Position numbers and translations under genes: made by a program. DNA of 64,000 bases from an uncultured beta proteobacterium (lineage in GTDB: Bacteria; Pseudomonadota; Gammaproteobacteria; Burkholderiales; Casimicrobiaceae): assembly GCA_963828595.1 (NCBI GenBank), contig CAWHEN010000010.1, forward strand, positions 29,048-93,047. Reading direction: 5' to 3'. The notes below the pieces were generated by a model. That model saw only the letters and a list, made by a program, of their open reading frames with translations, made no database searches and was not told where the DNA came from. Every line of letters starts with the position of its first letter. Positions within the stretch are counted from its first letter, which is position 1. Below are positions 40,762 to 59,099 of this stretch, piece by piece.

Positions 40762-42540
40762 ATGCCTCGGTTATCTTTCTCACTCGGCCGTGCAGTCCTT
40801 CTGTGGCTTGGCATTGTGCTATTCGGTGTCGGCAGCCTGAGCTCGCAAGCCGCCGAGCCCAAAAAGATCCTATTGCTCCACTCCTATGGGCAGGAGGGGG
40901 CGCCGCTGGATGCTTTTGTCAATTCGTTTCGAACCGAGATGCTTCGAACGTGGCCAGAAAAGGCGGCGTTGTACGATTTCTCGCTCGAAACGGGGCGACC
41001 CGAAATCGGCGAGAATGAAGGCGCGATCATTCAAGTACTGAGAGCCCGTTTCGCCGCCATGAAGCTGGATCTCGTCGTCATGTTAGGTGCGCAGGCTGCG
41101 CGCTTTTATACCAGGAATCGGGAAGAATTGTTCCCGGAGGTGCCGATGTTGGTCATCGCCGACAAGCGAACTGCGCCCGTCGACACGCTAAAGCGCGGTG
41201 ATTCTGTCGTCGGAATCAGGATATCAGCCCCCCAAGCTGTCAAAGGCATCCTCGAGTTGCTTCCCGAAACTACAACAATCGCCTTGATCTTGGGTAGCTC
41301 GTCGGGAGAGCGATTCTGGGCGGCAGAATTGCGCAAGGATCTTGCATCCTTCGAGGGTCGCGTCAAGTTCGTCTGGCTCGACAACCTCCTGCTTTCGGAG
41401 GTGCGCGAGCAGGTTGCTACGCTGCGCCCGGGAGCCGTTGCGCTGTACGTTGTATTCCAGGTGGATGCGGCCGGCATCCCATATAACCAGGAATACGCAA
41501 TCAGCGAGATCCATGCCGCGTCCAAAGTGCCGTTGTTCGGGCTTTTCGAAAACCAAGTGGGGCAGGGCATGGTTGGCGGCGCCCTCATTTCCGGCGCGGA
41601 ACAGGCCATCGTGGCCGCCGAGACTGCAAGTCGTGTGCTGAGGGGCGAAGCGCCCCAGGAAGCAGCGGTATTCCTGGGCCCGACGGCACCGCAGTTCGAT
41701 TGGAGGGAGCTCCAGCGGTGGCACATCGACGAAAACCTGCTTCCTCCCGGCAGCATAGTGCGGTTTCGACCGCCCTCGATGTGGGAGGAGTATAAATTCA
41801 CAGTGATAGCCAGCTTCGCTGTGCTCCTGTTTCAGGCCGCGCTGATCACCGCATTGATCGTACAGCGCATCCGTCGTCGGCGCGCCGAGCGCGAAGCGTT
41901 TTCCCTCAGTAGGCGATTGCTCACGGCTCACGAGGACGAGCGGCGAAGACTTGCCCGCGAATTGCACGACGATGTGACGCAGCGTCTGGCGCGCCTCGCA
42001 ATCGACGCGGCTCGATTCGAAAAGATTGGTCAGCACGCGCAGGGTAGCGCGCCGCAGTCGCTGCACCGCGGGTTGGTGCGCCTGAGCGAAGACGTGCACG
42101 CGCTCTCGTATCGACTTCATCCGTCGATTCTGGACGACCTGGGCCTGGCGGAGGCTTTGAAAGCAGAGTGCGAGCATGTTTCGCGGCGCGAGCCCGTGCG
42201 GGTCGAGGTCGAGCTGGATCAGGTCCCAGACGGGCTGCCGAACGATGTCGCTTTGTGCGTCTTTCGCGTTGTGCAGGAGGCTTTGCGAAATATCGCGCGT
42301 CACGCCAGGGCCAGTGTTGCGATCGTAAGTCTCGCCTTCAAGGACGGCGGTCTGCTGCTGGCGATACGCGATAACGGGGTCGGCTTCGACGTCGACGCAA
42401 CGCGCTCGCGGCACAGCCTCGGCCGCGCTGGCATGGGCGAAAGGGTGAGGCTCCTCGGCGGAACCTTCGACATAGAGAGCGCGTTCGGGCAAGGAACAAC
42501 CGTATCCGCGTGGGTGCCCCTCAAGGCGGCTTCGTCATGA
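40762..42540 (+). CDS. sensor histidine kinase (HisKA_3/NarX-type) with an N-terminal periplasmic PBP-like domain
   Basis: Signal/TM, periplasmic ..KKILLLHSYGQEG.. domain, TM, H-box ..AHEDERRRLARELHDDVTQRL.., and HATPase ..IRDNGVGFD..GLGRAGMGERV... Confidence 0.9.
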   Translation: MPRLSFSLGRAVLLWLGIVLFGVGSLSSQAAEPKKILLLHSYGQEGAPLDAFVNSFRTEMLRTWPEKAALYDFSLETGRPEIGENEGAIIQVLRARFAAMKLDLVVMLGAQAARFYTRNREELFPEVPMLVIADKRTAPVDTLKRGDSVVGIRISAPQAVKGILELLPETTTIALILGSSSGERFWAAELRKDLASFEGRVKFVWLDNLLLSEVREQVATLRPGAVALYVVFQVDAAGIPYNQEYAISEIHAASKVPLFGLFENQVGQGMVGGALISGAEQAIVAAETASRVLRGEAPQEAAVFLGPTAPQFDWRELQRWHIDENLLPPGSIVRFRPPSMWEEYKFTVIASFAVLLFQAALITALIVQRIRRRRAEREAFSLSRRLLTAHEDERRRLARELHDDVTQRLARLAIDAARFEKIGQHAQGSAPQSLHRGLVRLSEDVHALSYRLHPSILDDLGLAEALKAECEHVSRREPVRVEVELDQVPDGLPNDVALCVFRVVQEALRNIARHARASVAIVSLAFKDGGLLLAIRDNGVGFDVDATRSRHSLGRAGMGERVRLLGGTFDIESAFGQGTTVSAWVPLKAASS

Positions 42541-43178
42541 GTCGTCCACGCGTACTGCTTGCGGATGACCATCGGATGATCGCCGAAGCGCTCAAGAGCC
42601 TGCTCGAGCAGGAGTTCGAGTTGGTAGGGGTTGTAGAAGACGGCCGCCAGCTGGTCGAAACCGCGCGGCATCTGCGTCCGGACGTCATCGTCGCCGACAT
42701 CACGATGCCGCATCTCAACGGGATCGACGCGCTGACGCAATTGAAGCGCGACAATCCCGACGTTCGAGTTGTATTCCTGACGATGCACAAGGATGCGGCG
42801 TACGCGCGCCGGGCGTTGGATGCAGGCGCGCGCGGTTATGTCCTGAAGCACTCGGCACAAGCGGAGCTCTTCCTTGCGGTGCGTGCTGCGCTTGACGGAG
42901 AGACTTATATCTCGCCGACGCTTGCCGGAGAGGTCTTCCACGATTTGAAGGTCAGTCCGGAGCATCCAATCAATCCTGTCGGCGCGCTGACTCCTCGCCA
43001 GCGCGAGATTCTCCAGCTCTTCGCCGAAGGCTTCCCGACCAAGGAGATCGCATCCAGGCTCGACATTTCGCCGCGAACCGTCGAGTTCCACAAATATCAG
43101 CTGATGGATTCGCTCAAGCTGCAAAGCAGCGCCGAGCTGATCCATTTCGCTATAAAAAACGGCATCGTTGCCGTCTGA
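42537..43178 (+). CDS. NarL/FixJ-family response regulator (REC + LuxR-type HTH)
   Basis: ATGA overlap with the kinase stop; ..VLLADDH..VIVADITMP.. and ..LTPRQREILQLFAEGFPTKEIASRLDISPRTVEFHK... Confidence 0.9.
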   Translation: MSRPRVLLADDHRMIAEALKSLLEQEFELVGVVEDGRQLVETARHLRPDVIVADITMPHLNGIDALTQLKRDNPDVRVVFLTMHKDAAYARRALDAGARGYVLKHSAQAELFLAVRAALDGETYISPTLAGEVFHDLKVSPEHPINPVGALTPRQREILQLFAEGFPTKEIASRLDISPRTVEFHKYQLMDSLKLQSSAELIHFAIKNGIVAV

Positions 43179-43242: not shown

Positions 43243-43284
43243 CCGTAAATTCCGCTATCGAACCTCGTAACTTTACGAGGTCAC
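43243..43284 (+). promoter_or_regulatory. operator-like motif copy 1 (contains the perfect palindrome ACCTCGTAA-ct-TTACGAGGT), upstream of the OMP gene
   Basis: CCGTAAATTCCGCTATCGAACCTCGTAACTTTACGAGGTCAC. A near-identical 42-bp block recurs at 44272-44314. Confidence 0.4.
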
Positions 43285-43381
43285 AGGTAGTTGTCACGTC
43301 GTTACGCTCTTAGCCTTTGAGCCAAGCGGAATCCGGTCGGCACTGCGGGCGATCGTTTCCTCGGCAAGGGAGAGGACGAAA

Positions 43382-44218
43382 ATGATGCGACGAAATTGCA
43401 GTGCAGCGTTGGGTTTTCCCGGTCGTGCAGCGACCCTGTTCGCTATGACCGTGCTGCTCTCCGGTACTGCTGCAGCGCAAGCGGGTCCGGACGACTGGCA
43501 GTTCCGGGGACTGATTTACGTCTATCTTCCGACTATTAGCGGCTCGACGACGTTTCCCGCCGGCGCGGGCAGCAACGTCAATGCCGACTCGGACAAGATC
43601 CTTGACCATCTGAAGTTCGCGTTCATGGGAACGCTGGAAGCGCAGAAGGGTCGTTGGGGTGGGTTCACCGATGTCATGTATCTCAATGTCAGCGGATCGA
43701 AGTCAGGCACACGTGACCTCACGATCGGCGGCGTTGAACTCCCGGCCGGTGTCAGTTCGAATGCTTCGCTGGACATCAAGGCGACCGTCTGGACCTTGGC
43801 CGCCAATTATCGGCTCCTGGCTGCCCCGGACGCAGCCTACGACGTCTTCGCCGGGGCTCGCCTTGTCGACGTCACGGAAAAGCTTGGCTGGGAATTCAGT
43901 GCGAACGTCGGACCGGTCGTGGGCGCCGGACAGACGGGCAGCGGCCAGACGAAACTCGACAACTGGGACGCCATCGTCGGCCTCAAGGGACGTTTCAGTT
44001 TCGGCCAGAGCCGCGAATGGTTCGTCCCCTATTACGTCGATGTCGGAACAGGCGAATCCAATTTCACCTGGCAGGCACTCGCCGGCATCGGCTATGCGTT
44101 CCGTTGGGGAGAAGTCGTCGCAGCGTGGCGTTATCTTGATTACGACTTCAAGTCGGATAAGAGGATCCAGAGCTTGAATTTGAATGGCCCCGCGATCGGT
44201 GTCGCTTTCCGCTGGTGA
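43382..44218 (+). CDS. outer-membrane beta-barrel protein (uncharacterised family)
   Basis: Signal peptide ..LLSGTAAAQA, alternating-hydrophobicity strands, C-terminal ..GVAFRW aromatic terminus. Confidence 0.6.
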   Translation: MMRRNCSAALGFPGRAATLFAMTVLLSGTAAAQAGPDDWQFRGLIYVYLPTISGSTTFPAGAGSNVNADSDKILDHLKFAFMGTLEAQKGRWGGFTDVMYLNVSGSKSGTRDLTIGGVELPAGVSSNASLDIKATVWTLAANYRLLAAPDAAYDVFAGARLVDVTEKLGWEFSANVGPVVGAGQTGSGQTKLDNWDAIVGLKGRFSFGQSREWFVPYYVDVGTGESNFTWQALAGIGYAFRWGEVVAAWRYLDYDFKSDKRIQSLNLNGPAIGVAFRW

Positions 44219-44271
44219 CCACGAGCGACCGCTGCGTCTGACGCGGGCCTGCAGGAAGGGTCCGCTCGGCA

Positions 44272-44314
44272 CCGGTAATTTCCGCGGCGCAACCTCGTAA
44301 ATTTCCGAGGTCAC
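44272..44314 (+). promoter_or_regulatory. operator-like motif copy 2, upstream of the REC-only gene and the downstream cluster
   Basis: CCGGTAATTTCCGCGGCGCAACCTCGTAAATTTCCGAGGTCAC. Confidence 0.4.
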
Positions 44315-44400
44315 TGCTTGCCCTGCAGCGGCTAGTGTACTGTATCGCAGGCGTGTTTTCGCCGGGCAAAAACGGAAACCAGAACAGTGAAGGCGGGGGA

Positions 44401-44835
44401 GTGACCCTTCGAACCGCGAGGTGTGTGCTGCTGGCGGACAAGCACCACGGCCTGATCGAGGGGGTGCGTGGCCTCCTCGAGACGGCTTTTGGCACGGTCT
44501 TCATGGTGGGTGACGAGGCTTCGCTTATCGAAGGGATAGATCGATTGGAGCCTTCGGTGATCGTCGTCGATCTTGCGATCGCCGGGGGCAATTGGTTGAA
44601 CGTTTTGCGGACACTGCGGGAGCGCTCACCGATGTCGAAAGTGATCGTGCTCAGCATGTACGACGAGCTATCCGTCGTGCGGGCCGCGCTGGGAGCGGGT
44701 GCCGATGGATTTGTACTCAAGCGCACGATCGGAACGGACATGATCGATGCGATCGAGGCGGTACTCGACGACAAGTCGTATGTCTCGCCCTCCGTTCACT
44801 CGCCAGCTGAAGTGAAGCCGCACGGAGGAGCGTGA
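44401..44835 (+). CDS. stand-alone receiver (REC-only) protein, NarL-type receiver without an output domain
   Basis: GTG 44401 after GAAGGCGGGGGA; ..VLLADKHHG..VIVVDLAI..VIVLS..GFVLK... The acidic pocket is ADK rather than ADD. Confidence 0.7.
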   Translation: MTLRTARCVLLADKHHGLIEGVRGLLETAFGTVFMVGDEASLIEGIDRLEPSVIVVDLAIAGGNWLNVLRTLRERSPMSKVIVLSMYDELSVVRAALGAGADGFVLKRTIGTDMIDAIEAVLDDKSYVSPSVHSPAEVKPHGGA

Positions 44836-46298
44836 AGAAGATAGACGACAGGCCGATGGATCGCTTGCGCTTCCAGCTCCTGTTATCGATGGCGGCGCTG
44901 CTCGCGCTGGGGGGCTGCGCAACGCGTCCGATCAATCCGCCGATCACCCAGGCCGACCCTACGACTGGCTACCGTTTCGAGCTTCGCCAGGCGCAGATCA
45001 AGAACAAGGACAACCTGGTCATCCTCGCCTTCTCGGGTGGCGGCACACGCGCCGCCGCCTTTTCGTACGGCGTGCTGGAGTTCCTGCGGCGCACCGAGGT
45101 GATCGGACCGAAGGGCAACAAGGGCCGACTGCTCGATGAAGTCGACGTCATCACCGGCGTATCGGGCGGCAGTTTCACCGCGCTGGCCTATGGCCTTTAC
45201 GGCGACAAACTGTTTGCCGAGTACGAGCAACGCTTCCTCAAGCGCAATGTGCAAGGCGAGATCGTTGCTCGCGCTTTCAATCCTGCCAACTGGGGAAGGC
45301 TGAGTTCAACGGGCTGGGGCCGCTCCGAAATGGCGGCCCAGCTATATGACGAAATTCTCTTCAACGGTGCCACCTTCGGCGATCTCGACCGCGGCACGGG
45401 CCCGCTGATCCTGGCGTCGGCCACCGACATCTCGACCGGCTCGCGTTTCGTCTTCAATCAGCGCACTTTCGACATCATCTGCTCGGATCTCAATGCGGTG
45501 CCATTGTCCCGCGCCGCTGCGGCGTCATCGGCCGTGCCGGTGGTGCTCTCGGCGGTCACGATCAACAACTATGGTGGTACCTGCAACGCGGTCATGCCCT
45601 CGTGGGCGAAGCTGTTCCTCGAGTCCGCGGAGCCGCCGCGACCAGCCGCACGCGCGCTACGTTCGCTCAAGACAGAGCAGGCCCTCGCCGACAGCGTTCA
45701 TCGGCCCTACCTTCACCTGGTCGACGGCGGAGTGTCGGACAACGTGGGCATGCGCGCTGTGCTCGATGCGCTGGAACTACTCGAGGCCTTGCACGAAGGG
45801 GGCCTGCCAACGCCGCTCGACAGCGCCAAGAGGATCATCGTCTTCGTCGTCAACTCGCTGTCGTCGCCGCCGACCAACTGGGATGAGTCGGAGAACCCGC
45901 CCGGCACCGTGGACATTCTGCTCAAAGCGGCGGGCACTCCGATCGATGCCTTCTCCTACGAGTCGGTCGAACTGTTGAGAGATAACGCGGCGCACTGGCG
46001 GACGCTGCGCCTGATCCGCAACTCGGCCGCCTATGCGGCCAACAAGGATCCTGCGGTGGCCGCCGCGGTGCGCGTCCCGGACGCGGAGATCTATGCCATC
46101 GACGTGTCGTTCTCCGCATTGAAGGACAAGGCGGAGTTCGACTACCTGAATCAATTGCCTACCTCGTTTGTCCTGCCCGCCGAGGCCGTCGATCGTCTGC
46201 GTGCCGCGGCGGGGACGATCATCACGGCGTCGGCCGAATTCCAACGTCTCCTGAAAGACGTCGGCGCAAAGGTTGTCCCCGATTCGAGCATCCAATGA
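44832..46298 (+). CDS. patatin-like phospholipase, predicted lipoprotein
   Basis: GTGA overlap with the upstream stop; lipobox LALGGC; oxyanion motif FSGGGTRAA, nucleophile GVSGGS, catalytic VDGGVSDN. Confidence 0.9.
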   Translation: MKKIDDRPMDRLRFQLLLSMAALLALGGCATRPINPPITQADPTTGYRFELRQAQIKNKDNLVILAFSGGGTRAAAFSYGVLEFLRRTEVIGPKGNKGRLLDEVDVITGVSGGSFTALAYGLYGDKLFAEYEQRFLKRNVQGEIVARAFNPANWGRLSSTGWGRSEMAAQLYDEILFNGATFGDLDRGTGPLILASATDISTGSRFVFNQRTFDIICSDLNAVPLSRAAAASSAVPVVLSAVTINNYGGTCNAVMPSWAKLFLESAEPPRPAARALRSLKTEQALADSVHRPYLHLVDGGVSDNVGMRAVLDALELLEALHEGGLPTPLDSAKRIIVFVVNSLSSPPTNWDESENPPGTVDILLKAAGTPIDAFSYESVELLRDNAAHWRTLRLIRNSAAYAANKDPAVAAAVRVPDAEIYAIDVSFSALKDKAEFDYLNQLPTSFVLPAEAVDRLRAAAGTIITASAEFQRLLKDVGAKVVPDSSIQ

Positions 46299-46406
46299 GC
46301 AAACGTCAGAAACCAGCGGCGGAACTGGCGATGTGCGATCCTGACTCGTTTCAGGGATTTGGCAGATCGATTTCCCTTTCAACTCCAATCAAAAGGTGGC
46401 ACCGAA

Positions 46407-46991
46407 ATGCATAGACATCTCCTTATCGCATCGATGATCGCAGCGGCATTCGTGCTGCCGGCCATGGCCCAAACCAGCGGTACCATGGTCGACAAAGCTC
46501 CCGGCACCGCCACCGTCGCTCAGACCGTCAAAGTCACGGCGACGATAGTCGCAATCGATTCGGCGACGCGTGCGATAACTCTGAAAACTCCGAAGGGAAA
46601 GGAAGTCACTCTGACGGCGGGACCGGAAGTCAAGAACTTCGCCCAGATGAAGGTCGGCGATCAGGTCACTGCCGCGTATGTCGAAGCGCTGACGCTCGAG
46701 CTCAAGAAAGGCGGCGGCAAGGCCGTCGCACGGACCGAGCAAGCGGGTGCGGCGGGGGCGAAGGCGGGCGCTCGCCCCGCAGGCATCGTCGGGCAGCAGG
46801 TGACGATCGTGGCCGACGTCGTCGATCTCGACGCCGCGACACAGACGGTCACACTTCGTGGACCGCAGCGCACGGTAGAGCTCAAGGTCCGCGATCCGGA
46901 ACAGTTCAAGCTCATCGCCAAGGGCGATCAAGTCGAGGCGACATACACCGAGGCGGTCGCGATCGAGGTCACGCCCGCGGCGAAGAAATAG
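46407..46991 (+). CDS. periplasmic protein with two tandem CusF/DUF1344-like OB-fold repeats (no Met/His metal ligands seen)
   Basis: Signal peptide. Internal duplication: ..TATIVAIDSATRAITLKTPKGKEVTL..KVGDQVTAAY.. versus ..IVADVVDLDAATQTVTLRGPQRTVEL..AKGDQVEATY... Confidence 0.55.
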   Translation: MHRHLLIASMIAAAFVLPAMAQTSGTMVDKAPGTATVAQTVKVTATIVAIDSATRAITLKTPKGKEVTLTAGPEVKNFAQMKVGDQVTAAYVEALTLELKKGGGKAVARTEQAGAAGAKAGARPAGIVGQQVTIVADVVDLDAATQTVTLRGPQRTVELKVRDPEQFKLIAKGDQVEATYTEAVAIEVTPAAKK

Positions 46992-47050
46992 CCGCCTCGC
47001 GTCGGACGCGCGTTCTGAAGGGATTTTGAGGTAGAGCATCGGAAAAGGAG

Positions 47051-47530
47051 ATGGCAATGCAAGTCACCAACGGTACACAGCGGGCGCTTGCCCTGGTCGC
47101 GGCGGTGTTTTTTGCGGCGAGCGCCTCGGCCCAACAATACGTCTATCCGGCCAAGGGCCAATCTCCGGAGCAGCAGAAGAAGGATGAGGGCGAGTGTCAT
47201 ACCTGGGCCATACAGCAAAGCAAGTACGATCCGGCCAACCCGCCGAAGCAGGCCGCGGCCCCGGCGCCGGCGACCACCGCGACCGGCACCACGCCGGGCG
47301 CGGGCGCGCGCGGGGCGGCGCGAGGCGCAGTTGTCGGCGGAGTCATGGGCGATGCCGGTGCAGGCGCCGCGGCGGGCGCCGTAGCAGCTCGCGGGCAAAG
47401 CCGTCGTCAGAACGCGGCGCAAGGGCAGCAACAACAGCAAGCTGCGACGCAGCAAGACCAGGCCGGCGCGGCCGCGTATCAGAAAGCACGCGGGGCCTGC
47501 CTCGAAGGACGCGGCTATACGGTGAAATAG
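47051..47530 (+). CDS. secreted glycine-zipper family protein
   Basis: Signal peptide; ..YVYPAKGQSPEQQKKDEGECHTWAIQQS..; Gly/Ala zipper GAVVGGVMGDAGAGAAAGAVAA; C-terminal ..ACLEGRGYTVK. Confidence 0.55.
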   Translation: MAMQVTNGTQRALALVAAVFFAASASAQQYVYPAKGQSPEQQKKDEGECHTWAIQQSKYDPANPPKQAAAPAPATTATGTTPGAGARGAARGAVVGGVMGDAGAGAAAGAVAARGQSRRQNAAQGQQQQQAATQQDQAGAAAYQKARGACLEGRGYTVK

Positions 47531-47599
47531 AAACCCGAAACGCCACGATGGCCGTCACAGGATTGGATAGTCGGATCGAACATCAAAAGGAAAGTAACA

Positions 47600-48238
47600 A
47601 TGAGTTTCCGCATTCCGAAACCGTTTGGCGGCGCCATGGCGATGTTTGCCTCAATCGTACTGATCGCCGGGGGCGCCACGTTTGTCGCTCCCGATGCGGC
47701 CGCGCAGAATGAACAGTCAAAGATATCGGCTGCCGACGCCGCGAAAAAGCGTGAGGCAGTGCTCAAGATGCGCGACGACGCGCTGGTGGACTTCTATGCG
47801 ACCAAGCCCGAGATCAAGGAAGAACTGGCGAAGGCCGTCGGTTATGCGGTGTTCGATGCGTCGCAAGTCAATATCGTGCTGTTCGTTGGCGGCTTGGGTG
47901 GAGGCGTGCTGGTCGAGAACGGAACCGGCAAGCAAACGTTCATGAAGATGACACGTGCCGGCACCGGGCCCGGCGTCGGATACAAGAAGTTCCGCCAACT
48001 GATCGTGTTCAAGGATCGAACGCTCTTCGACAACTTCCGCACTGTGGGCGCCGACATCGGAGCCTCCGCTGACGCGACGATGAAGATCGGCGGCACGGGG
48101 GTTGCAGTCGATCCCAATGTTTCGTTCAATCCGCTGCTCTCGATCTATCAGATCACCGACAGTGGCGCGTTGTTGCAGGCCAACTGGGGCGGCGTCGCGT
48201 ATCTGCCCGACGGCGACCTGAACCCGCCCGCACAATGA
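47600..48238 (+). CDS. SYLF (Ysc84/DUF500) lipid-binding-domain protein, secreted
   Basis: Signal peptide; ..AVGYAVFDASQVNIVLFVGGLGGGVLVE..GTGPGVGYKKF..GADIGASADAT.. fits the SYLF pattern. Confidence 0.7.
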   Translation: MSFRIPKPFGGAMAMFASIVLIAGGATFVAPDAAAQNEQSKISAADAAKKREAVLKMRDDALVDFYATKPEIKEELAKAVGYAVFDASQVNIVLFVGGLGGGVLVENGTGKQTFMKMTRAGTGPGVGYKKFRQLIVFKDRTLFDNFRTVGADIGASADATMKIGGTGVAVDPNVSFNPLLSIYQITDSGALLQANWGGVAYLPDGDLNPPAQ

Positions 48239-48299
48239 TCACGGGAGCCCGACCAATGCAATGCTGGAATCGTGCAGGACCGTCACTCGAGGGAGCGGC

Positions 48300-48776
48300 A
48301 TGAAAAAACTTCTGTGGACTATCGTTTGCACCACTGCGCTGCTTGCGGCCTCCGTGTGCGCGCAGAGCAGGTCCGCCGATATGGACATGCAGATCCTGCG
48401 CGACAAGCTCAAAGCGGACAAGAAGGTTATCGTCGCCTCCAACATGCAACTGACCGATGCGGAAGCAAACGCCTTCTGGCCGATCTACGACGCCTACCAG
48501 AACGATTTGAAGGCAATCAATGCGCGTCTGGGCAACGGTATCCTCGCCTACGCGGATGCGTACAAGGCCGGGCCGATCTCGGATGGAGCGGCAAAAACGT
48601 TTCTGGATGAGGCCCTCGCAATCGAGGACGCGGAAGCGAAATTGCGCAAGGATTACGCGGCGAAGTTGACGGCTGCAATTCCCGCAGCCAAGGCGGCGCG
48701 TTATCTGCAAATCGAGAGCAAGATCCGTGCGGTGATCCGCTACGAGCTTGCGGCGAACATTCCCCTAGTCAAATGA
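48300..48776 (+). CDS. secreted helical hypothetical protein (possibly Spy/CpxP-like LTxxQ type; weak)
   Basis: Signal peptide MKKLLWTIVCTTALLAASVCA; ..MQLTDAEANAFWPIYDAYQ... Confidence 0.45.
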   Translation: MKKLLWTIVCTTALLAASVCAQSRSADMDMQILRDKLKADKKVIVASNMQLTDAEANAFWPIYDAYQNDLKAINARLGNGILAYADAYKAGPISDGAAKTFLDEALAIEDAEAKLRKDYAAKLTAAIPAAKAARYLQIESKIRAVIRYELAANIPLVK

Positions 48777-48844
48777 TGACACGCCAGGCGTTTATGTTCA
48801 CGAAAAGCGGGTCCGCGAGACCGAAGGAACAGGAGGCAACGTTG

Positions 48845-50113
48845 ATGGACACGAATAGCAGGCACTTCGCGCCACGGTCGCTGATGTGGCTGGTGTCGTT
48901 GGCCGCATGTGCCGCAATGATCTGCGCGCCGCTGGCCGCGGCGCAGGCCCCTGCGGCTTCCGGCAGCGCCGCGGAGGCGCCGTCGCCCGAGGAGCTCGAC
49001 AAGCTCGTCGGTCCCTTCGCGCTCTATCCCGACGACCTCGTGGCGCTCATCGTGCCCGCGTCGACCAATCCGCTGCAGATCGTTCAAGCCGACCGCTTCC
49101 TCGAGAAGCGAAAGAAGGATCCCAAGACGCCGATCGACGACAGCTGGGACGACTCGGTGAAATCGCTGGTCAACTATCCGGAGGTGATCAGGCAGATGAG
49201 CGCCGACCTCGACTGGACCGCGGCTCTCGGCGAGGCGGTCGTTGCCGACCAGGGCGCGGTGCTCGACGCCGTGCAGGCATTCCGGCGCAAGGCCCAGGCC
49301 GCAGGAAACTTGAAAACGGATACCAAGCAAGTCGTCGAGGTGGAGAAGGAGATCATCAAGATCGTTCCTGCCGACCCGCAGGTCGTCTATGTGCCGCAAT
49401 ACAACCCTTCGAGTGTCGTCGTGTACAGCGCGGCTCCAGTCTACGGCTACTGGCCTGCGCCGTATCCGAGTTACTACTACCCGTACGCACCGGGCGCCGC
49501 ATTGGCCACGGGCTTGATCTGGGGCGCAGCGATCGGCGCGGCCTGGGGCGGAGGCCACTATGGCGCGAACTGGAGCGGTGGCAACAACAACATCACGATC
49601 AACCGCGGCAACAACAACATCAACACCGGCGACATCAACAGGGGTAATGCTGGCAACCGGCCATCGCAGCAACCGAACAGGGGCGGCGGCGGCACGTCCT
49701 CGTGGAAATCCGACAAGAAGCCTGGACAGGTCAGCAGCGGCGCCGGGCGGTCGGCATCGACCGGCCGTGTTGGAGATACTCGCGGGGGCGGCGCCGGCGG
49801 CGGAGCAGGCGCGCGTCCGTCGCAGGGCGGCGGCGGATTCGGACAAGGTGCCGGTGCCGGCGGGGGTCGCCCCGGCGGTGCCAGCACATCGGGCGCCGCG
49901 ACTCGTAGCGGCGGCGGGGGAGGCGGCGGCAGCGCGTTCGGTGGTTATGGATCGGGCAATTCCGCACGCGCCGACAGTTCGCGCGGCGCCTCGAGCCGCA
50001 GCTCGATGTCGGGCGGCGGCGGTAGATCGAGCGGCGGCGCAAGCTCGCGCGGCGGTGGCGGTGGCGGACGCGGGGGCGGTGGTGGCGGACGCGGTGGCGG
50101 CGGTCGTCGCTAG
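48845..50113 (+). CDS. DUF3300 protein with a long Gly/Ser/Arg-rich C-terminal tail
   Basis: ..LDKLVGPFALYPDDLVALIVPASTNPLQIVQADRFL.. is the DUF3300 signature. The tail ends GGGGGGRGGGGGGRGGGGRR. An alternative start at 48773 overlaps the upstream stop. Confidence 0.8.
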   Translation: MDTNSRHFAPRSLMWLVSLAACAAMICAPLAAAQAPAASGSAAEAPSPEELDKLVGPFALYPDDLVALIVPASTNPLQIVQADRFLEKRKKDPKTPIDDSWDDSVKSLVNYPEVIRQMSADLDWTAALGEAVVADQGAVLDAVQAFRRKAQAAGNLKTDTKQVVEVEKEIIKIVPADPQVVYVPQYNPSSVVVYSAAPVYGYWPAPYPSYYYPYAPGAALATGLIWGAAIGAAWGGGHYGANWSGGNNNITINRGNNNINTGDINRGNAGNRPSQQPNRGGGGTSSWKSDKKPGQVSSGAGRSASTGRVGDTRGGGAGGGAGARPSQGGGGFGQGAGAGGGRPGGASTSGAATRSGGGGGGGSAFGGYGSGNSARADSSRGASSRSSMSGGGGRSSGGASSRGGGGGGRGGGGGGRGGGGRR

Positions 50114-50124
50114 GAGAAGGACAA

Positions 50125-51093
50125 ATGAATATCCTTACTGCAAACACACGAGCGATCGACACCATGAATCTCATTGCGAAGTTGAAGCTGATACGCCTTC
50201 TCGCTCTGATCGCCTTCTGCGCGATGCCGATGTTCGCCACGGGCGCAGAGCAGAAGACGTTCGGGACCCCCGACGAGGGAGTCGATGCGTTGCTCACGGC
50301 ACTCAAGGCCGATGACGATGCTGCGATGGTCGCGATCTTCGGCGACAAGCACAAGAACCTGATCGTGACGCCCGACCGGGCCGCGAACTCGGAAATGCGC
50401 GCCAAAGTTGCAGCCGCGATACAGACGTATCGTCTTCTTGAAGAGAAGGGGAAGGATCGCCGCGTACTGCTGATCGGCGATCAGGCGTGGCCGCTGCCGA
50501 TTCCGCTGGTTCGCGTCGGCCAGCGCTGGCGGTTCGCGACGGAGGAAGGAGAGGACGAGATCATCAATCGGCGGATCGGGGCGAACGAGCGCAGCGCGAT
50601 CAAGGTTCTCCACGCGTATCTCGATGCGCAGAAGGACTACGCCGCGCGCGACCGCATCGGCGATGGCGTCCTGCAGTACGCACAGCGGCTCGGCAGCACA
50701 CAGGGCAAGCACGACGGACTGTACTGGCCGGCCGATACGGCAAAGGGCGAGGAAGCGAGCCCATTCGGACCGCTGGTCGCGGAAAGCGCAGCGTATCTGA
50801 AGGGCCACGCGGCGGGCGATCCGTACCGCGGCTATCAATTCCGGATTCTCACGCGCCAGGGCAAGAGCGCGCCCGGCGGCGCGTACAGCTACATCATCAA
50901 TGGCCGCATGATCGCCGGCTTCGCGATGGTGGCTTATCCCGCTCAGTACGGCGATAGCGGCGTGATGACCTTCATCGTCAGCCACAACGGCAAGGTCTTC
51001 GAGAAGGATCTAGGCAAGAATTCCGCAGCGGTCGGTGCCGAACTGACTGCGTTCGACCCCGGTGCCGGCTGGAAGGAAGTGCCGGTTCCATAG
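50125..51093 (+). CDS. DUF2950 protein (usual partner of DUF3300)
   Basis: ..FGTPDEGVDALLTAL..WPLPIPLV..RRIGANERSAIKVLHAYLDAQKDYA..GLYWPA..GYQFRILTRQG..GFAMVAYPAQYGDSGVMTFIV... Confidence 0.8.
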   Translation: MNILTANTRAIDTMNLIAKLKLIRLLALIAFCAMPMFATGAEQKTFGTPDEGVDALLTALKADDDAAMVAIFGDKHKNLIVTPDRAANSEMRAKVAAAIQTYRLLEEKGKDRRVLLIGDQAWPLPIPLVRVGQRWRFATEEGEDEIINRRIGANERSAIKVLHAYLDAQKDYAARDRIGDGVLQYAQRLGSTQGKHDGLYWPADTAKGEEASPFGPLVAESAAYLKGHAAGDPYRGYQFRILTRQGKSAPGGAYSYIINGRMIAGFAMVAYPAQYGDSGVMTFIVSHNGKVFEKDLGKNSAAVGAELTAFDPGAGWKEVPVP

Positions 51094-51101
51094 GTCTGGC
51101 C

Positions 51102-51674
51102 ATGGGGGGAGACGTGAAGGTTCGGGGCAGATTCACCAACACGCGCGGTGCGGCGCGGCTCGCGGCCGCAGGATGTCTGGCGGCGGCAGCCACGCCTGCC
51201 TCCGCATCGTTTCTCTCCGGTGAGGCGCTCGACACGGCGGCGACCGTCATCGCCTGGGTCGTCATTTGCGTCGTCCCGATCGTTTGCATCGTCCTGTTCT
51301 GGCTGGTTCACGTCCTGCCCGAAAAGATCGCCGAGAAGCGGCATCATCCGCAGAAGGACGCGATCCATACGCTGTGCCTGCTGTCGCTGGCGTTCGGCGG
51401 CCTGCTGTGGCCGATCGCGTGGCTGTGGGCGTACACCAAGCCGGTCGGATATCGACTCGCCTACGGCACCGAGAAGCACGACGACTATTACCTCGAGATG
51501 GGAGAAAAGGCGAAATCCGGCGCGCTGTCGCAGGAGGACATCGTCCATCTCCGGCATGAACTCGATGTGATGGCGGCGAAAGGGACGCTCCCCGTGACAC
51601 TCAAGGCCCTGCGAAACGAGCTCGACGCGCGGCCGGTCGAGCCGGCGGTCGGCGTGAGAGCAGGAGGCGCGTAA
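51102..51674 (+). CDS. yiaW: DUF3302 (YiaW-like) inner-membrane protein with an N-terminal extension
   Basis: ..VLFWLVHVLPEKIAEKRHHPQKDAIHTLCLLSLAFGGLLWPIAWLWAY.. matches the YiaW core. Confidence 0.7.
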   Translation: MGGDVKVRGRFTNTRGAARLAAAGCLAAAATPASASFLSGEALDTAATVIAWVVICVVPIVCIVLFWLVHVLPEKIAEKRHHPQKDAIHTLCLLSLAFGGLLWPIAWLWAYTKPVGYRLAYGTEKHDDYYLEMGEKAKSGALSQEDIVHLRHELDVMAAKGTLPVTLKALRNELDARPVEPAVGVRAGGA

Positions 51675-52894
51675 TGGACATTCTCCTGCTCGGAATCTAC
51701 GCGTTCTTCGTCTGGCTGATCTTCATCAAGTTCAAGTGGCTGCCGTGGAACACGACCTCGCAAGTCACCGTCGTCATCATTCCCATCGTCGCGCTCGCGG
51801 TGATGATCCTGACGCTCAATGTGGTCGCACCTTCCTCGAGCGACGTGCGGGTTCTGAAGTACGTCGTGCAGATCGTTCCGCAGGTGAGGGGACGCGTCAT
51901 CGAGGTGCCCGTCGAGCCCAACCGGCTGGTCAAGAAGGGCGAGCTGTTGTTCCGCATCGACCCGACGCCGTATCAGAACGAGCTCAGCATCGCCAAGGCG
52001 AAGCTTGCCGTGGACGAGTCCAAGCTCGCGCAGGCTGGCGCTAACCTCGCCGAAACATCCGCCAGCGCGCGCGAATTGCGCGAGCAGCTCAAATCTGCGA
52101 GCGGACAAGTCGCGGCACTGCGGCCGCAAATCGACCTCGCACAAATGCGGGTCAGACAGAATCGTGAACTGGTGGCCACGGGCGCCGGAGACAAGTTCGC
52201 TCTGGAGCAGGCCGAAGCCAACGTGATCGCGCTCGACGCCCAGCTCGCCACCGCGACCGCCAACGAGGCGCAGGTCACGCAGAGGCTGTCAGGACAGGTG
52301 AACGGCGAACAAGCGTCGGTCGCCGCGTCGCGGGCACAGATCGTCACTGCGAAGGCGCAGGTGGACGCGAGCCGCGTCGACGTCGCGAGCAAGCAGTGGG
52401 ATCTCGACCAGACGTCCGTTTATGCGCCGACAAGCGGTTACGCGATCAACGTACAGCTGCGCCCGGGCTCGTTCGTCGCCGCACTCCCGTTGACTCCGGC
52501 GATGAGCTTCGTCGAGGAGACGTACCAGATCATCGCGCTATACAGCCAGAACGAGCTCGTTGCGGTCGAGCCGGGCAACGAAGCGGAGGTCGCGCTGGCG
52601 ACCAACCCGGGCCGCATCATCAAGGCGAGCGTCGACTCGATCATCTGGGCGCAGGGCCAGGGGCAGGCCTTGCAGTCGGGTGCACTGCCTCAAACGGGCG
52701 CCTACCCGCAGGTTCCGGGCCGGTTCCCGGTCAAGCTCAACGTGGCTGCCAAGGACCTCGAGTTGTTCCTCGCCGCAGGTGCTACCGGTGACGCGGCGAT
52801 CTACACCGATCGCGTCGAGGCCATCCAGATCCTGCGCAAGGTGCTCATTCGCGTCGGCTCGATCATGAATTACCTCGTCCTGAAGCTGCACTGA
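51674..52894 (+). CDS. yiaV: HlyD-family membrane fusion protein, YiaV-like
   Basis: TAATG overlap. The N-terminus MDILLLGIYAFFVWLIFIKFKWLPWN.. and C-terminus ..RKVLIRVGSIMNYLVLKLH parallel E. coli YiaV as I recall it. Confidence 0.85.
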   Translation: MDILLLGIYAFFVWLIFIKFKWLPWNTTSQVTVVIIPIVALAVMILTLNVVAPSSSDVRVLKYVVQIVPQVRGRVIEVPVEPNRLVKKGELLFRIDPTPYQNELSIAKAKLAVDESKLAQAGANLAETSASARELREQLKSASGQVAALRPQIDLAQMRVRQNRELVATGAGDKFALEQAEANVIALDAQLATATANEAQVTQRLSGQVNGEQASVAASRAQIVTAKAQVDASRVDVASKQWDLDQTSVYAPTSGYAINVQLRPGSFVAALPLTPAMSFVEETYQIIALYSQNELVAVEPGNEAEVALATNPGRIIKASVDSIIWAQGQGQALQSGALPQTGAYPQVPGRFPVKLNVAAKDLELFLAAGATGDAAIYTDRVEAIQILRKVLIRVGSIMNYLVLKLH

Positions 52895-54363
52895 TGTCGG
52901 TCGCTCGCATCGTGGGTCGCTGGGTGCTGCTGGTCGGCGCAGCCGGCACGATCGCCGGCTGCATCCTTAAGCGTCCGCCGGATGTGGCCGATCTCCAGCG
53001 CGAAGCGCTTCCCCACACGGCCGTGCCCGCCGAGTGGAAGGGGAAGGGTGGGCTCGCGCAACCGGTCGACGATCGCTGGCTCGCCTCGTTCAACGATCCG
53101 GTGCTGTCCGCACTCGTCGACGAAGCGATCGCCTACAACGCCGATCTGAAGATCGCGGCGGCGCGCGTCGAGCAGGCCGCGGGCTATGTGAAAATCGCCG
53201 GCGCGACGCTTCTGCCCGCGGTGGGCGTGCTTGGTCACGCCGGCGGAAAGTCCGGCGGCGACGGTGGCCTGCAGGGCATCTGGCTCAACGCTTCGCTCGA
53301 GCTCGATGTGTGGGGCCGCATCCGCTATGGCGAGGCCGCGGCGCAGGCCCAGTTCGCATCGGCCGACGCCGACTACGCCTTTGCGCGCCAGTCGCTCGCC
53401 GCAATGGTGGCAAAGAGTTATTTTTTTGCCATCGAAGCCGCGCTGCAGCGTTCGATCGCGCAGGGTGTGCTGGGGTCGTCCAACGAGCTGCTGCGCGTGT
53501 CCCAGGACCGGCTGCGCATCGGCGTCGGCGACGACCAGGCAGTCGCCGAAGCGCGCGCGGACGTCGGCACCTACCGCGACACGCTGCGACAGGTCGAGTA
53601 TTCGCGAGAACAAGCGCTGCGGGCGCTCGAGGTGCTGCTGGGCAGGTATCCCGCGGCGGAAGTCGCAGTCGCGCAACAACTGGCGGCGATGCCGGGGCCC
53701 GCTCCTGTCGGCATGCCCTCGGAGCTGCTCGAGCGCCGTCCCGACGTCATCGCGGCCGAGCGCCGCGTCGCTGCAGCGTTCGACCGGGTCGAGGAAGCGA
53801 AGGCCGCACAGCTTCCGCGCATCGCCCTGACCGCGGGCGGCAGCAGTGTCTCGAGCGAGCTCATCGTGCTAAAGGATCACAGCAATCCGATATGGGGATT
53901 CGGCGCCAATCTGATCGCGCCGCTGTATCAGGGCGGCGCACTGCGGGCGCAAGTCGAGGTGCGCACGGGCGAACAGAAGCAGGCAGTGGCCGAGTATGCC
54001 CGGGCTGCGCAGCGCGCTTTCAGCGACGTCGAAAATGCGCTGTCGGCCGAAGTCGCGTTGCGCGACCGCGATGCGATCCTCGTCGAGAACATCGTGGACA
54101 ATCAGCGGGCCCTGGATCTCGCGCAGATCCAGTTCAAGGTCGGCAAGATCGATTTGCGCGTCGTCGGGCAGCGGCAGCTTGCGCTGTATGGCGCGCGCAC
54201 GTCGCGGCTGCATGTGCAGAGCGAGCAGCTCGCGCAACGCGTCAATCTTTACTTGGCACTCGGCGGGAGTTTCGAGCCCTGCCGAAAAAACGAGCTTCAA
54301 TCAGGTGAACAAGGAATAGGCCCACACACCGGGGATATCACGCGTAGTAATGACGAATCTTGA
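52894..54363 (+). CDS. NodT-family outer-membrane efflux lipoprotein
   Basis: TGATG overlap; lipobox TIAGC; ..WLASFNDPVLSALVDEAIAYNADLKIAAARVEQA.. and ..ELLERRPDVIAAERRVAAA... Confidence 0.9.
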   Translation: MSVARIVGRWVLLVGAAGTIAGCILKRPPDVADLQREALPHTAVPAEWKGKGGLAQPVDDRWLASFNDPVLSALVDEAIAYNADLKIAAARVEQAAGYVKIAGATLLPAVGVLGHAGGKSGGDGGLQGIWLNASLELDVWGRIRYGEAAAQAQFASADADYAFARQSLAAMVAKSYFFAIEAALQRSIAQGVLGSSNELLRVSQDRLRIGVGDDQAVAEARADVGTYRDTLRQVEYSREQALRALEVLLGRYPAAEVAVAQQLAAMPGPAPVGMPSELLERRPDVIAAERRVAAAFDRVEEAKAAQLPRIALTAGGSSVSSELIVLKDHSNPIWGFGANLIAPLYQGGALRAQVEVRTGEQKQAVAEYARAAQRAFSDVENALSAEVALRDRDAILVENIVDNQRALDLAQIQFKVGKIDLRVVGQRQLALYGARTSRLHVQSEQLAQRVNLYLALGGSFEPCRKNELQSGEQGIGPHTGDITRSNDES

Positions 54364-54473
54364 TTTGAGTCAAGGTGTCCGATGCGTCGCAGCGGCACGC
54401 TAACGTCTCAGTCAGAGCACGCCAATTCCGTTACGTTTCAGATAGCACGCGCACCAATTACAGGAGAAATAGC

Positions 54474-57409: not shown

Positions 57410-59099
57410 ATGGTGGATTTCATCGTCACAACATTGCAGAAATCCCCGGAGCTCGCGATCTTCGCGTCGCTTGCGCTCGGCTATTGGATCGGCGTCATCA
57501 AGTTGGGCAGCTTCAGCCTCGGCACGGTTACCGGCACCCTTCTGGTTGCGATCCTGATCGGTCAGCTGGGTATCGTCGTATCGCCCAACGTCAAGTCGAT
57601 TTTCTTCATCATGTTCCTGTTCGCGGTCGGTTACGGTGTGGGACCGCAGTTCGTTCGCGGTATCGCCACGGACGGGCTGCCGCAGGCCATTTTCGCCGTG
57701 GTGATATCGGTGCTCTGCCTGGTCTCGGTCTATGTGGCGTGCATCGTCGCGGGGTATGACGCGGGGTTCGGCGCAGGCCTTCTGGCGGGTTCCCAAACGA
57801 TTTCGGCGGCCATGGGTCTCGCGACCGACGCGTTCAACGGGCTGGGGTTGGCGCCCGACAAGACCAAGGAACTGGCCGATCACATGCCCGTTGCCTACGC
57901 CATAACCTACATCTGGGGCACGATCGGAACCGGCGTCATTCTCTCGATATTGGGTCCCAAGCTCCTCGGCGTCGATCTCGAGGCCGAATGCAAACGATAC
58001 GAAAAGGAAATGTCGGCCGGGGCGCCTTCCGGCGGCATGCAGTCAGCGTATCGCCGCACCGACATACGAGCCTACAAGATCGGCGATCGGATGCCACGCG
58101 GGATGACCGTGGCCGGCGCCGAGGCCCACCACGGGGACGCTCGCATATTCGTCCAGCGTCTGCGTCGTGACGGCAAGCTGATGGAGTTCACACCGACGAC
58201 GGCCCTGCAGCAGGGGGATGTCGTCGCGGTGGCCGGCAGGACTGAAGCGCTGGTCGAGGTGCTAGGCAAATACGGCAACGAAGTTTCCGATCCCGAGTTG
58301 CTGGATATGCCCGCGGAAGCCGTCGATGTCGTCCTGACCAACAAGGCCTACGACGGCAAGACGCTGCTCGAGTTGATGAAGACCGATTTCGCGAGGGGCG
58401 TCTACCTGAACAAGATCACCCGCGGCGCCACTTCCGTCAACATTCCGATACTGGCGCAGACCAAGGTCAATCGCGGCGACATCCTGCGTATCGCGGGTGC
58501 GGGCGCGAGCCGTAGCCGAGGCCGTCAAGAATCTGGGATACGCAGACCGGCCGACGAATGCAACCGACATGGTCTTTGTCGGTCTGGGCATAGTCGTCGG
58601 CGGCCTGATTGGCGCTATCGTCATGCCGGTCAAAGGTATTCCGATTACGCTGTCGACATCCGGCGGCGCGTTGATCGCCGGCATCATCGTCGGTTGGCTG
58701 CGCGGGGTTCGTCCAACCTTCGGTCGCATTCCGGCGCCCACACTCTGGTTCATGAACAGCGTTGGCCTGAACGTGTTCATCGCCGTCGTGGGGCTTACGG
58801 CCGGTCCGACCTTCGTCGCCGGCATCAAGCAGGCCGGGTTCGGTCTGTTCCTCTGGGGATTGTTCGCGACTACCGTCCCGATGCTGTTGGCGCCATGGAT
58901 CGGAAAGTACATCTTCAAGTTCGATCCTGCCATCAACCTGGGTTGCTGCGGCGGCGCTCGCACGAGTACCGCGTCCGTCGCAATGGTTGCCGACGTGGCC
59001 AAGAGCGACATTCCAATGCTCGGCTATACGGTGCCGTATGCGGTCAGCAACACGCTGCTCACGCTGTGGGGCCTGGTCATCGTTTTGATGCTTTCGTAA
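57410..59099 (+). CDS. aspT: AspT/YidE/YbjL-family (AAEx) antiporter, aspartate:alanine exchanger type; one frameshift near 58498
   Basis: ..[34 protein letters not shown].., central TrkA_C-like domains, second half ..[24 protein letters not shown].. in frame 58497. Confidence 0.8.

Follow-up and report, generated by a model that had tools for sequence, protein, structure and literature searches.

A candidate two-component system-controlled mosaic of envelope-protein modules in a soil betaproteobacterium

Introduction

What holds together twelve co-directional genes, nearly all of which encode exported proteins, and do these genes build one envelope system? The question is raised by a locus in an uncultured soil betaproteobacterium, on contig CAWHEN010000010.1 of assembly GCA_963828595.1. 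We analyzed a 64-kb stretch of this contig (positions 29,048 to 93,047, referred to here as the window and numbered from 1), in which the genes occupy positions 43382-54363. An earlier note, drawn from the letters of the window, had read them as a single undescribed cell-envelope system under a dedicated two-component system (TCS). In order, it had named an outer-membrane beta-barrel protein (gene 1), a stand-alone REC protein (gene 2), a patatin lipoprotein (gene 3), a tandem OB-fold periplasmic protein (gene 4), a Gly-zipper protein (gene 5), a SYLF protein (gene 6), a helical periplasmic protein (gene 7), a DUF3300 and a DUF2950 protein (genes 8 and 9), a DUF3302 protein (gene 10), a membrane fusion protein (MFP, a periplasmic adaptor; gene 11) and a NodT-family outer-membrane factor (OMF; gene 12).

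We put at roughly 55% the probability that this region is a co-regulated, accreted, lineage-specific mosaic of envelope modules under a dedicated TCS. The array as a whole is lineage-specific and its modules re-associate elsewhere in shuffled order, which makes it a mosaic and not one conserved machine. At least five independently mobile modules are joined in the cluster: the barrel and patatin genes; the genes of small periplasmic proteins (OB, Gly-rich and helical); the BefA-like SYLF gene; the DUF3300-DUF2950 pair; and the DUF3302-MFP-OMF block. Support is good for the regulatory wiring and for the mosaic evolution alike. The best homologue matches come from metagenome-assembled genomes (MAGs) of the Casimicrobiaceae (Burkholderiales), and we found no description of this combination in the literature searched, in agreement with the earlier note.

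Results

All twelve open reading frames (ORFs) were found on the + strand, exactly where the earlier note had placed them between 43382 and 54363. They are as closely packed as it had claimed: intergenic distances, taken from the longest-ORF starts, run from -4 to 116 bp, and stop and start codons overlap at 44832 (GTGA), 51672-51676 (TAATG) and 52892-52896 (TGATG), to which we add a fourth overlap, ATGA at 48773. From gene 2 to gene 12 no gap exceeds 69 bp, which, together with the four overlaps, leaves little space for independent promoters. Apart from the REC protein, every product shows a signal peptide, lipobox or transmembrane (TM) segment, again as had been noted.

Upstream of gene 1 lies a TCS of the NarL/FixJ type, in which the gene of a sensor histidine kinase (40762..42540, +) overlaps, at 42510-42540, that of a response regulator (42510..43178, +). 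The kinase carries an N-terminal signal/TM segment, a periplasmic domain and the Pfam domains HisKA_3 and HATPase_c, and its core is closest to MctS/UhpB. Its periplasmic domain bears a weak similarity to periplasmic binding proteins (ABC_sub_bind, 18.8 bits, below the cutoff), and a PDB search with this domain was negative. The regulator combines a REC domain (Response_reg, 103 bits) with a GerE helix-turn-helix (HTH; 66 bits).

The earlier note had tied this TCS to the array through an operator shared by the first two promoters, and the tie withstood closer scrutiny. The operator core is a near-perfect 16-bp palindrome, with the consensus CTCGTAAATTTACGAG, accompanied by a distal half-site. 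The pattern ACCTCGTAAnTTTnCGAGGTCAC matches the window at 43262-43284 and 44292-44314, compared with 0 matches in shuffled sequence; a reverse-strand match overlapping the second site arises because the sequence is palindromic and is therefore the same site, so that the pattern marks just two places in 64 kb. Promoter/operator 1 (43245..43308, +), which precedes gene 1, consists of the half-site GTAAATTCCG (43245-43254), the core CTCGTAACTTTACGAG (43264-43279) and a -10-like TACGCT (43303-43308). Promoter/operator 2 (44275..44338, +), which precedes gene 2, consists of the half-site GTAATTTCCG (44275-44284), the core CTCGTAAATTTCCGAG (44294-44309) and a -10-like TAGTGT (44333-44338). Within the window, operators stand only before these two genes.

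When nine promoter regions from five contigs and four lineages (the window, L082, L028, L104/L105 and L046) were aligned, a common layout emerged: a distal GTA[AG][AT]TTCCG, 8 bp, the palindrome, 21-22 bp, and a -10-like TAG[TG][GC]T with an invariant TA. Measured from the inferred transcription start, the operator centre falls ~43 bp upstream, which is the classic position of a class II activator. Moreover, regulator orthologues that are 96% (L082), 67% (L028) and 58% (L046) identical to that of the window are each followed by the same operator, which accompanies regulator orthologues in five of seven contigs. In a scan of ~2 Mb of related loci, matches to the operator were confined to contigs related to the cluster. 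L082 and L083 have it at the same two positions as the window; in L028 it stands before REC-patatin-DUF3300-DUF2950 and, divergently on the other strand, before an OB-Gly-rich-helical operon; in L104 and L105 it stands before an OB gene; and L046, a Methylomirabilales MAG, has three strong and three weaker sites, including one after the regulator, one before a SYLF gene and others in front of further genes of its island. The operator precedes homologous genes in four other contigs from three lineages, one of them in another phylum. This conserved operator/promoter architecture supports the link to the adjacent kinase and regulator, and the NarL-type regulator is the presumed binder of the palindrome.

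At 6802-7120 and 3819-4475, respectively, L046 also carries, directly behind an operator, a stand-alone GerE HTH protein of 99 amino acids that is 64% identical to the C-terminus of the window regulator, and, behind another operator, a REC-like fragment; both domains of the regulator hence also exist as separate operator-controlled genes.

To follow the array across relatives, we collected, with one genome per species and a view limited to +/-10 kb per anchor, 37 betaproteobacterial loci anchored on DUF2950 (57-82% identity) and a distant set of 43 such loci from many phyla (43-51% identity), next to contigs from metagenomes anchored on the patatin; short length, or frameshifts in long-read assemblies, affect several of the contigs. 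In the 37 species-level relatives only the blocks DUF3300-DUF2950 and DUF3302-MFP-OMF keep a rigid form. The OB protein is found near DUF2950 at 12 of these loci, the DUF3302-MFP-OMF block at about 9, the patatin at 8, SYLF and barrel proteins at 4 each and the helical protein at 2, and the kinase, regulator and REC genes are near it only in L028. The gene 5 family is near DUF2950 at 14 of the 37 loci and in 13 patatin loci. Any partner at all is present at 3 of the 43 distant loci (L046, L054 and L058). The DUF3302-MFP-OMF block itself takes at least five arrangements relative to DUF2950: directly after it (the window and L001), 1-4 kb upstream on the same strand (L003, L006, L010 and L035), 1-2 kb downstream (L008, L024 and L058), 7 kb downstream (L023) and on the opposite strand (L036).

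Among the patatin-anchored contigs, two from the rhizosphere (L082 and L083) keep the whole array from the kinase to the decarboxylase gene that follows gene 12, in the same order and at 87-98% amino-acid identity; both are of the same lineage and are thus not independent evidence. The patatin gene has a barrel gene directly upstream on eight contigs, a Gly-rich gene directly upstream on six, a kinase-regulator pair directly downstream on two and DUF3302-MFP(-OMF) directly downstream on three (L107, L110 and L148), and DUF3300/DUF2950 are near it on four. The single conserved twelve-gene system that the earlier note had envisaged therefore does not hold: beyond L082 and L083 the order, orientation and membership of the array vary, and each module also occurs alone. 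The neighbourhood analysis that it had proposed, anchored here on DUF2950 and the patatin, has a divided outcome, in that the families do recur together and the exact array is not kept beyond one lineage. That the component families co-localise far above chance is supported.

The regulator, too, is exchanged among relatives. At nine Burkholderiales loci (L005, L006, L010, L011, L017, L019, L023, L036 and L038), an AraC-family gene (Arabinose_bd + HTH_18) is divergent from [patatin]-OB-[CoA-disulfide reductase/rhodanese]-DUF3300-DUF2950. There, the AraC gene takes the place of the TCS for the same outputs, and either regulator can stand in for the other. In L046, an island unites a CHASE/PAS HisKA_3 kinase, the 58%-identical regulator, operators, the REC fragment and HTH-only paralogue, and an OmpA-like lipoprotein with DUF3300, DUF2950, a gene 7 homologue, a SYLF gene and an MltF-like transglycosylase. 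One SYLF gene of this island is beside DUF3300-DUF2950, and a second is directly behind an operator.

Other genes recur in these neighbourhoods. A lipoprotein of the phospholipase D (PLD) family, with two HKD motifs, lies within 10 kb of DUF3300-DUF2950 in L005, L012, L018 (6947-8491, -), L024 and L028, and is a second kind of exported phospholipase there. Across L001-L038 we also encountered a SulP transporter (13 loci), PPK2, acetate kinase (AckA) and a short-chain dehydrogenase/reductase (SDR; 8 loci each), phosphate acetyltransferase (Pta) and DUF3141 (7 each) and carbonic anhydrase (5). Related neighbourhoods are present in two cultured strains, Sulfurisoma sediminicola BSN1 (L027) and Caballeronia ptereochthonis LMG 29326 (L031); in the latter, DUF3300, DUF2950, Gly-rich and OB genes stand in a row, two SYLF genes lie no more than 10 kb away, and a barrel gene is on the opposite strand.

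Could the array be a fortuitous juxtaposition in a rearrangement-prone region, with a TCS that controls only gene 1 and REC/patatin? The solitary occurrence of each module elsewhere, the unrelated genes that recur in the neighbourhoods (SulP, PPK2, AckA, Pta, DUF3141 and carbonic anhydrase) and the confinement of the window's operators to genes 1 and 2 would all fit such a view. However, the families of the array come together repeatedly, in no fewer than five arrangements and under either of two regulator types, the operator elsewhere precedes an OB/Gly-rich/helical operon, a DUF3300-DUF2950 operon and a SYLF gene, and the spacing of genes 2-12 leaves little space for promoters of their own. 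We therefore consider chance juxtaposition unlikely.

Quite unlikely, in our view, is the opposite extreme, an integrated trans-envelope machine in which most or all of the twelve products form one complex that moves lipid or protein cargo. The tight spacing, the translational coupling at four junctions and the export of the products would suit a machine of this kind, as would the direct succession of DUF3300-DUF2950 and DUF3302-MFP-OMF in the window and L001 and of the patatin and the latter block in L107, L110 and L148. Against it, membership, order and strand vary among close relatives, leaving two rigid sub-blocks only, and most DUF3300-DUF2950 loci are without MFP-OMF, patatin, SYLF and barrel genes. 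In addition, the "trans-envelope conduit" of the earlier note lacks an engine: Pfam and NCBIfam models revealed no energised inner-membrane transporter (RND, ABC, MFS or AaeB) among the genes at 38096-62218, and none is adjacent to the adaptor in related loci.

The reading that we prefer, a co-regulated mosaic, has to contend with several observations that weigh against it. The full array is present only in near-identical contigs, so that its operon status is without independent comparative support, and the 37 loci are mutually related, so that the counts given above overstate the number of independent events. On three Nitrospirota contigs the DUF3300-DUF2950 pair stands alone amid housekeeping genes, no fewer than seven long contigs carry the patatin without any of its partners, and barrel paralogues at 61-70% identity occur in unrelated contexts. 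As for the wiring, no operator was found within the few kb that the short contigs L084 and L085, which encode an 80%-identical regulator, have to offer, and scans of 40.3-57.5 kb with consensus promoter and terminator models gave no more matches than shuffled sequences. Finally, a structure model of DUF2950, searched with Foldseek against the PDB, returned nothing significant, with NTF2-like and pilin-like hints only (best E 0.056).

We next turn to the products themselves. Of the family assignments made in the earlier note, those of the REC-only, patatin, DUF3300, DUF2950, DUF3302 and NodT OMF proteins stand above curated thresholds, and that of the SYLF protein is upheld by a phmmer match to BefA; the weak part comprises the MFP, tandem OB, Gly-zipper, outer-membrane barrel and helical labels.

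Gene 1 (43382..44218, +) encodes a secreted protein of 278 amino acids, a putative outer-membrane beta-barrel by virtue of its signal peptide and a C-terminal aromatic beta-signal (GVAFRW). Sequence and profile searches gave no Pfam, NCBIfam or PDB match, and a hydrophobic-moment test did not discriminate a barrel. Its 1224 homologues are all annotated "hypothetical", and elsewhere they are often directly upstream of the patatin. The ORF of gene 2 (44335..44835, +) encodes a stand-alone REC protein of the NarL subfamily (Response_reg, 55 bits, residues 31-140), whose nearest NCBIfam models, MctR/NarL, are matched in their REC part only. The -10 box at 44333-44338 excludes GTG 44335 as the point where translation begins; the true start is probably the in-frame GTG at 44401.

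The product of gene 3 (44832..46298, +) is a patatin-like phospholipase (Pfam Patatin, 77 bits; cutoff 27.7) with the lipobox LGGC of a lipoprotein. Its catalytic motifs are intact (oxyanion GGGTR, nucleophile GVSGG and DGG). It resembles CapV-type lipases only generically. We considered an anti-phage function and rejected it: the NCBIfam CBASS_lipase model scores 23.6 bits against a cutoff of 200, and PADLOC gave only generic "Phospholipase effector" matches, without partner genes, for a patatin that bears a lipoprotein signal.

Genes 4, 5 and 7 encode small exported proteins. The gene 4 product (46359..46991, +; probable start ATG 46407) is a periplasmic protein with two CusF-like OB repeats, which the CusF_Ec model matches below threshold in two stretches; a PDB search was negative, and the "tandem OB" label is weakly supported. 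A CusF-type metallochaperone was rejected, given 19.4 bits against a cutoff of 27 and a mature protein devoid of His, Trp and Cys. The gene 5 product (47051..47530, +) is secreted and rich in Gly, Ala and Gln, and its cysteines at both termini are conserved; no family model matched significantly, and its "Gly-zipper" label rests on a stretch rich in G-x3-G. The gene 7 product (48261..48776, +; probable start ATG 48300), a secreted protein of ~140 amino acids, belongs to a large family of ~160-residue secreted proteins without a Pfam or NCBIfam model (3519 representative clusters at E<=1e-3, 1166 at E<=1e-10), in which an invariant F-W-P-x-Y motif follows an "LT[DE]xEA" turn. The protein itself has no Pfam, NCBIfam or PDB match. 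As regards the helical periplasmic stress proteins CpxP, Spy and ZraP, two of 45 relatives match Pfam Metal_resist weakly (best E=1e-4), and an hhalign comparison with E. coli Spy, for which an approximate sequence was used, was not significant (probability 0.7%). A 50%-identical copy adjoins DUF2950 in L046.

Gene 6 (47600..48238, +) encodes a secreted SYLF-domain protein that phmmer aligns with two solved SYLF structures, BefA (PDB 7RFQ; E=2.6e-24, query residues 37-208) and BPSL1445 (PDB 7OFN; E=1.6e-4). Like most bacterial SYLF homologues, it is secreted, consists of the SYLF domain only and measures ~200 amino acids. BPSL1445, by contrast, is a lipoprotein: gene 6 has no lipobox, as there is no cysteine in its signal region, and its assignment to the BPSL1445 family (NCBIfam NF049970) was rejected at 35 bits against an equivalog cutoff of 200. 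BefA binds, vesiculates and permeabilises membranes, the permeabilisation being of liposomes and of bacterial cells, and its authors propose an antimicrobial role (bioRxiv 10.1101/2022.03.24.485696); the SYLF-like EipA of Brucella is a periplasmic envelope-integrity factor (PMC10787603). The BefA and EipA papers mention neither a dedicated TCS nor a DUF3300/DUF2950 neighbourhood, although no search was aimed at this.

DUF3300 (gene 8, 48773..50113, +; PF11737, 186 bits, cutoff 25; the family of E. coli YacH) and DUF2950 (gene 9, 50125..51093, +; PF11453, 344 bits, cutoff 20.2) are adjacent, with DUF3300 upstream, a gap of 11 bp and signal peptides on both. A protein search returned more than 6000 DUF2950 homologues (E<=0.001), and DUF3300 is directly upstream of DUF2950 in essentially all 80 loci for which that flank is available, across many phyla. 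A de novo look at the regions upstream of DUF3300 in the 37 loci revealed no common motif beyond the ribosome-binding region. In the window (49600-50113) and in L046 (9500-9867), DUF3300 ends in a Gly/Ser/Arg-rich low-complexity tail that terminates in GGGGRR and is preceded by a Tyr/Pro-rich and then a Gly-rich hydrophobic stretch, so that a disordered tail is common to both phyla. AlphaFold2 modelling of DUF2950 was unusable with 24 close homologues (predicted local distance difference test, pLDDT, 46.5); with 117 sequences (mean pLDDT 67.8) it predicted a confident N-terminal alpha+beta domain. A profile-to-PDB sequence search with DUF2950 was negative. Universal co-localisation of the pair and its induction in microoxic bacteroids have been reported, in the one study found to discuss the pair, in which gene neighbourhood gave no hints (PMC4653623), and YacH is Cpx-regulated and affects protamine sensitivity (PMC9600279).

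The last three genes form the other rigid block. Gene 10 (51102..51674, +) encodes a small inner-membrane DUF3302 protein of the YiaW/YibI type (PF11742, 61 bits, cutoff 32). Gene 11 (51674..52894, +) encodes a putative MFP of the EmrA/MdtN/YiaV type that has a TM region at its N-terminus and HlyD-family similarity, all of its scores lying below curated cutoffs (HlyD_D23, HlyD_3 and Biotin_lipoyl_2; MdtN, 122 bits; EmrA/EmrK, 105 bits). Gene 12 (52894..54363, +) encodes a NodT-family OMF lipoprotein (OEP, 122 bits; TIGR01845, 243 bits, cutoff 210; lipobox IAGC). DUF3302 is directly upstream of the HlyD-family adaptor, with a 1-nt overlap, and in related loci it is always immediately upstream of the MFP. 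Without an inner-membrane transporter, the block is not classifiable as an efflux pump. No function of YiaWV was described in the literature that we searched.

What, then, might the cluster do? A role in the remodelling or protection of envelope lipids and membranes is a plausible but tentative suggestion. It draws on the intact active site of the patatin and its predicted sorting as an outer-membrane lipoprotein, on the action of BefA on membranes and of EipA in keeping the envelope intact, and on the Cpx regulation and protamine link of YacH. The same ingredients could be read as an inducible offensive arsenal, in which the BefA-like disrupter and the patatin serve as toxins against competitors or eukaryotes and leave through MFP-OMF or in vesicles. 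The permeabilisation of liposomes and bacterial cells by BefA and the antimicrobial role proposed for it, the frequency of patatin domains in toxins and effectors, and the recurrent PLD-family lipoprotein are in keeping with this. Yet the patatin is a standard-lipobox lipoprotein and no recognisable secreted effector, which PADLOC and other models match at the domain level only; there is no ABC component, no component of a type I, II or VI secretion system and no immunity-like gene; and among SYLF relatives there are periplasmic envelope-integrity factors, Brucella EipA being one (PMC10787603). We regard such an arsenal as very unlikely.

The array is followed by an Orn/Lys/Arg decarboxylase gene (54375-57267) with an apparent frameshift near 56420. 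The 54375 frame accounts for just positions 2-224 of the 417 in the profile of its major domain, and its ORF tails off in Arg-rich nonsense; the C-terminal domain OKR_DC_1_C is in the 56431-57267 frame. The break is either an assembly indel or the mark of a pseudogene; a copy in L015 breaks at about the same place. Further on, 57410-60785 encodes an AspT aspartate:alanine antiporter (partial match) and then a bifunctional aspartate 4-decarboxylase (755 bits, above the cutoff), and a second AspT-like gene (62820-64000) runs off the end of the window. AspT paired with aspartate 4-decarboxylase constitutes a proton-motive decarboxylation cycle. L001, L015 and L035 likewise have decarboxylase and AspT-family genes in the vicinity of DUF3300-DUF2950. 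The stop codon of the OMF gene is overlapped by an Anr/FNR-like box, TTGATTTGAGTCAA (54360-54373), which departs from TTGAT-N4-ATCAA by one mismatch; the place of this box just upstream of the decarboxylase suggests a separate, possibly oxygen-responsive, control of that gene.

The lxa locus of Burkholderia cenocepacia has some of these gene classes in common with the neighbourhoods of the relatives: in the sections of its description used here (PMC3721108), it comprises AckA, Pta, SulP, a decarboxylase, an MFP/outer-membrane protein transporter and TCSs, has a polyhydroxyalkanoate synthase in place of DUF3141, and carries the Anr/FNR motif TGA-N6-TCA at its genes, which is not enriched at DUF3300 loci. 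Table 4 of that source, within the same sections, lists gene classes and unnamed hypotheticals, with no named DUF3300/DUF2950, so that members of these two families may be among the unnamed ones. On the same basis, carbonic anhydrase, like PPK2 and DUF3141, falls outside the lxa-like classes. That the region is an lxa-type low-oxygen/acid survival island, in which the envelope genes are passengers beside the decarboxylase and the aspartate:alanine antiporter, is most improbable: the AckA, Pta, DUF3141, SDR, SulP, decarboxylase and PPK2 genes of the relatives (lxa-like classes, as far as those sections go, except PPK2 and DUF3141; PMC3721108), the box before the decarboxylase and the microoxic induction of DUF3300/DUF2950 (PMC4653623) lend it some colour, but boxes of the type TGA-N6-TCA lie upstream of DUF3300 in just 4 of 70 loci, those in the window are three inside coding sequences and none in promoter position for the twelve genes, and the cluster has its own, different operator. 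We accordingly rejected lxa-like Anr/FNR control of the cluster.

Discussion

If the region is a mosaic under common control, its action can be pictured as follows. The kinase would sense a signal through its periplasmic domain and phosphorylate the NarL-type regulator, which would then bind the palindrome ~43 bp upstream of the start at the two promoters, whose sites and geometry are directly observed. Gene 1 would be activated alone and genes 2-12 as one long unit, and the REC-only protein, once induced, would probably act as a phosphate sink or feed back on phosphotransfer. The best candidate for a joint task of the exported products, though a tentative one, is the remodelling or protection of the lipid layers of the envelope. 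Membranes would be the target of an outer-membrane-anchored phospholipase A and of a SYLF protein of the membrane-permeabilising type, buffering or scaffolding would fall to the small periplasmic proteins and to DUF3300/DUF2950, and through the MFP-OMF duct, which has no pump, something would be vented or delivered across the outer membrane.

The link between the NarL-type regulator and the CTCGTAAATTTACGAG operator is seen in Burkholderiales as well as in Methylomirabilota. It is conceivable, if doubtful, that DUF3300-DUF2950, the gene 7 family and a BefA-like SYLF protein form a core repair/remodelling module that this regulator controls through CTCGTAAATTTACGAG, and that the Casimicrobiaceae recruited to it, within one operon, an outer-membrane phospholipase A and a pump-less MFP-OMF duct of the YiaWV type. 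Were this so, the core and its recruits would together amount to a new envelope lipid-homeostasis system and would provide a first physiological role for YacH, YiaWV/YibHI and bacterial SYLF proteins. Should the more general lipid hypothesis hold, the cluster would be a new player in outer-membrane lipid homeostasis and would give a pump-less MFP-OMF a purpose.

Independently of function, the mosaic offers the DUF2950, DUF3300, DUF3302-adaptor and gene 7 families, exported and uncharacterised so far, their first shared regulatory and genomic setting, made up of a co-localisation that recurs in shuffled order, regulators of two types that can replace each other, and a conserved promoter of the activator-dependent kind. 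It also presents an example of operon accretion, as the two divergent operator-controlled operons of L028 are fused into one in the window.

How does the cluster compare with what is known? Genes 8-9 are like the known DUF3300/DUF2950 pair in order and signal peptides; they differ, together with those of many Burkholderiales, in that the pair stands amid patatin, OB, Gly-rich, SYLF and YiaWV-OMF genes and under TCS or AraC control. The DUF3302 protein and HlyD adaptor presumably correspond to E. coli YiaWV and YibIH, in which a DUF3302 protein is likewise followed by an EmrA/MdtN-like adaptor; the window adds a NodT OMF, and we know of no OMF gene adjacent to the E. coli pairs and of no linkage between them and yacH. 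Tripartite pumps of the EmrAB-TolC type differ in possessing an inner-membrane transporter, of which the block in the window has none. There is also a likeness in design to EvgAS of E. coli, where a NarL-family regulator and a kinase activate clustered exported proteins that include an adaptor/OMF, and decarboxylase and antiporter genes adjoin the cluster in the window. The EvgAS acid fitness island and the Cpx, Bae and Rcs regulons are nevertheless not known to have homologous output genes, and their operator and sensor domain are different. Taken together, a TCS-controlled envelope regulon that includes an adaptor/OMF pair is already familiar; what is new is how this one is composed, its operator, and the way in which these uncharacterised families keep associating.

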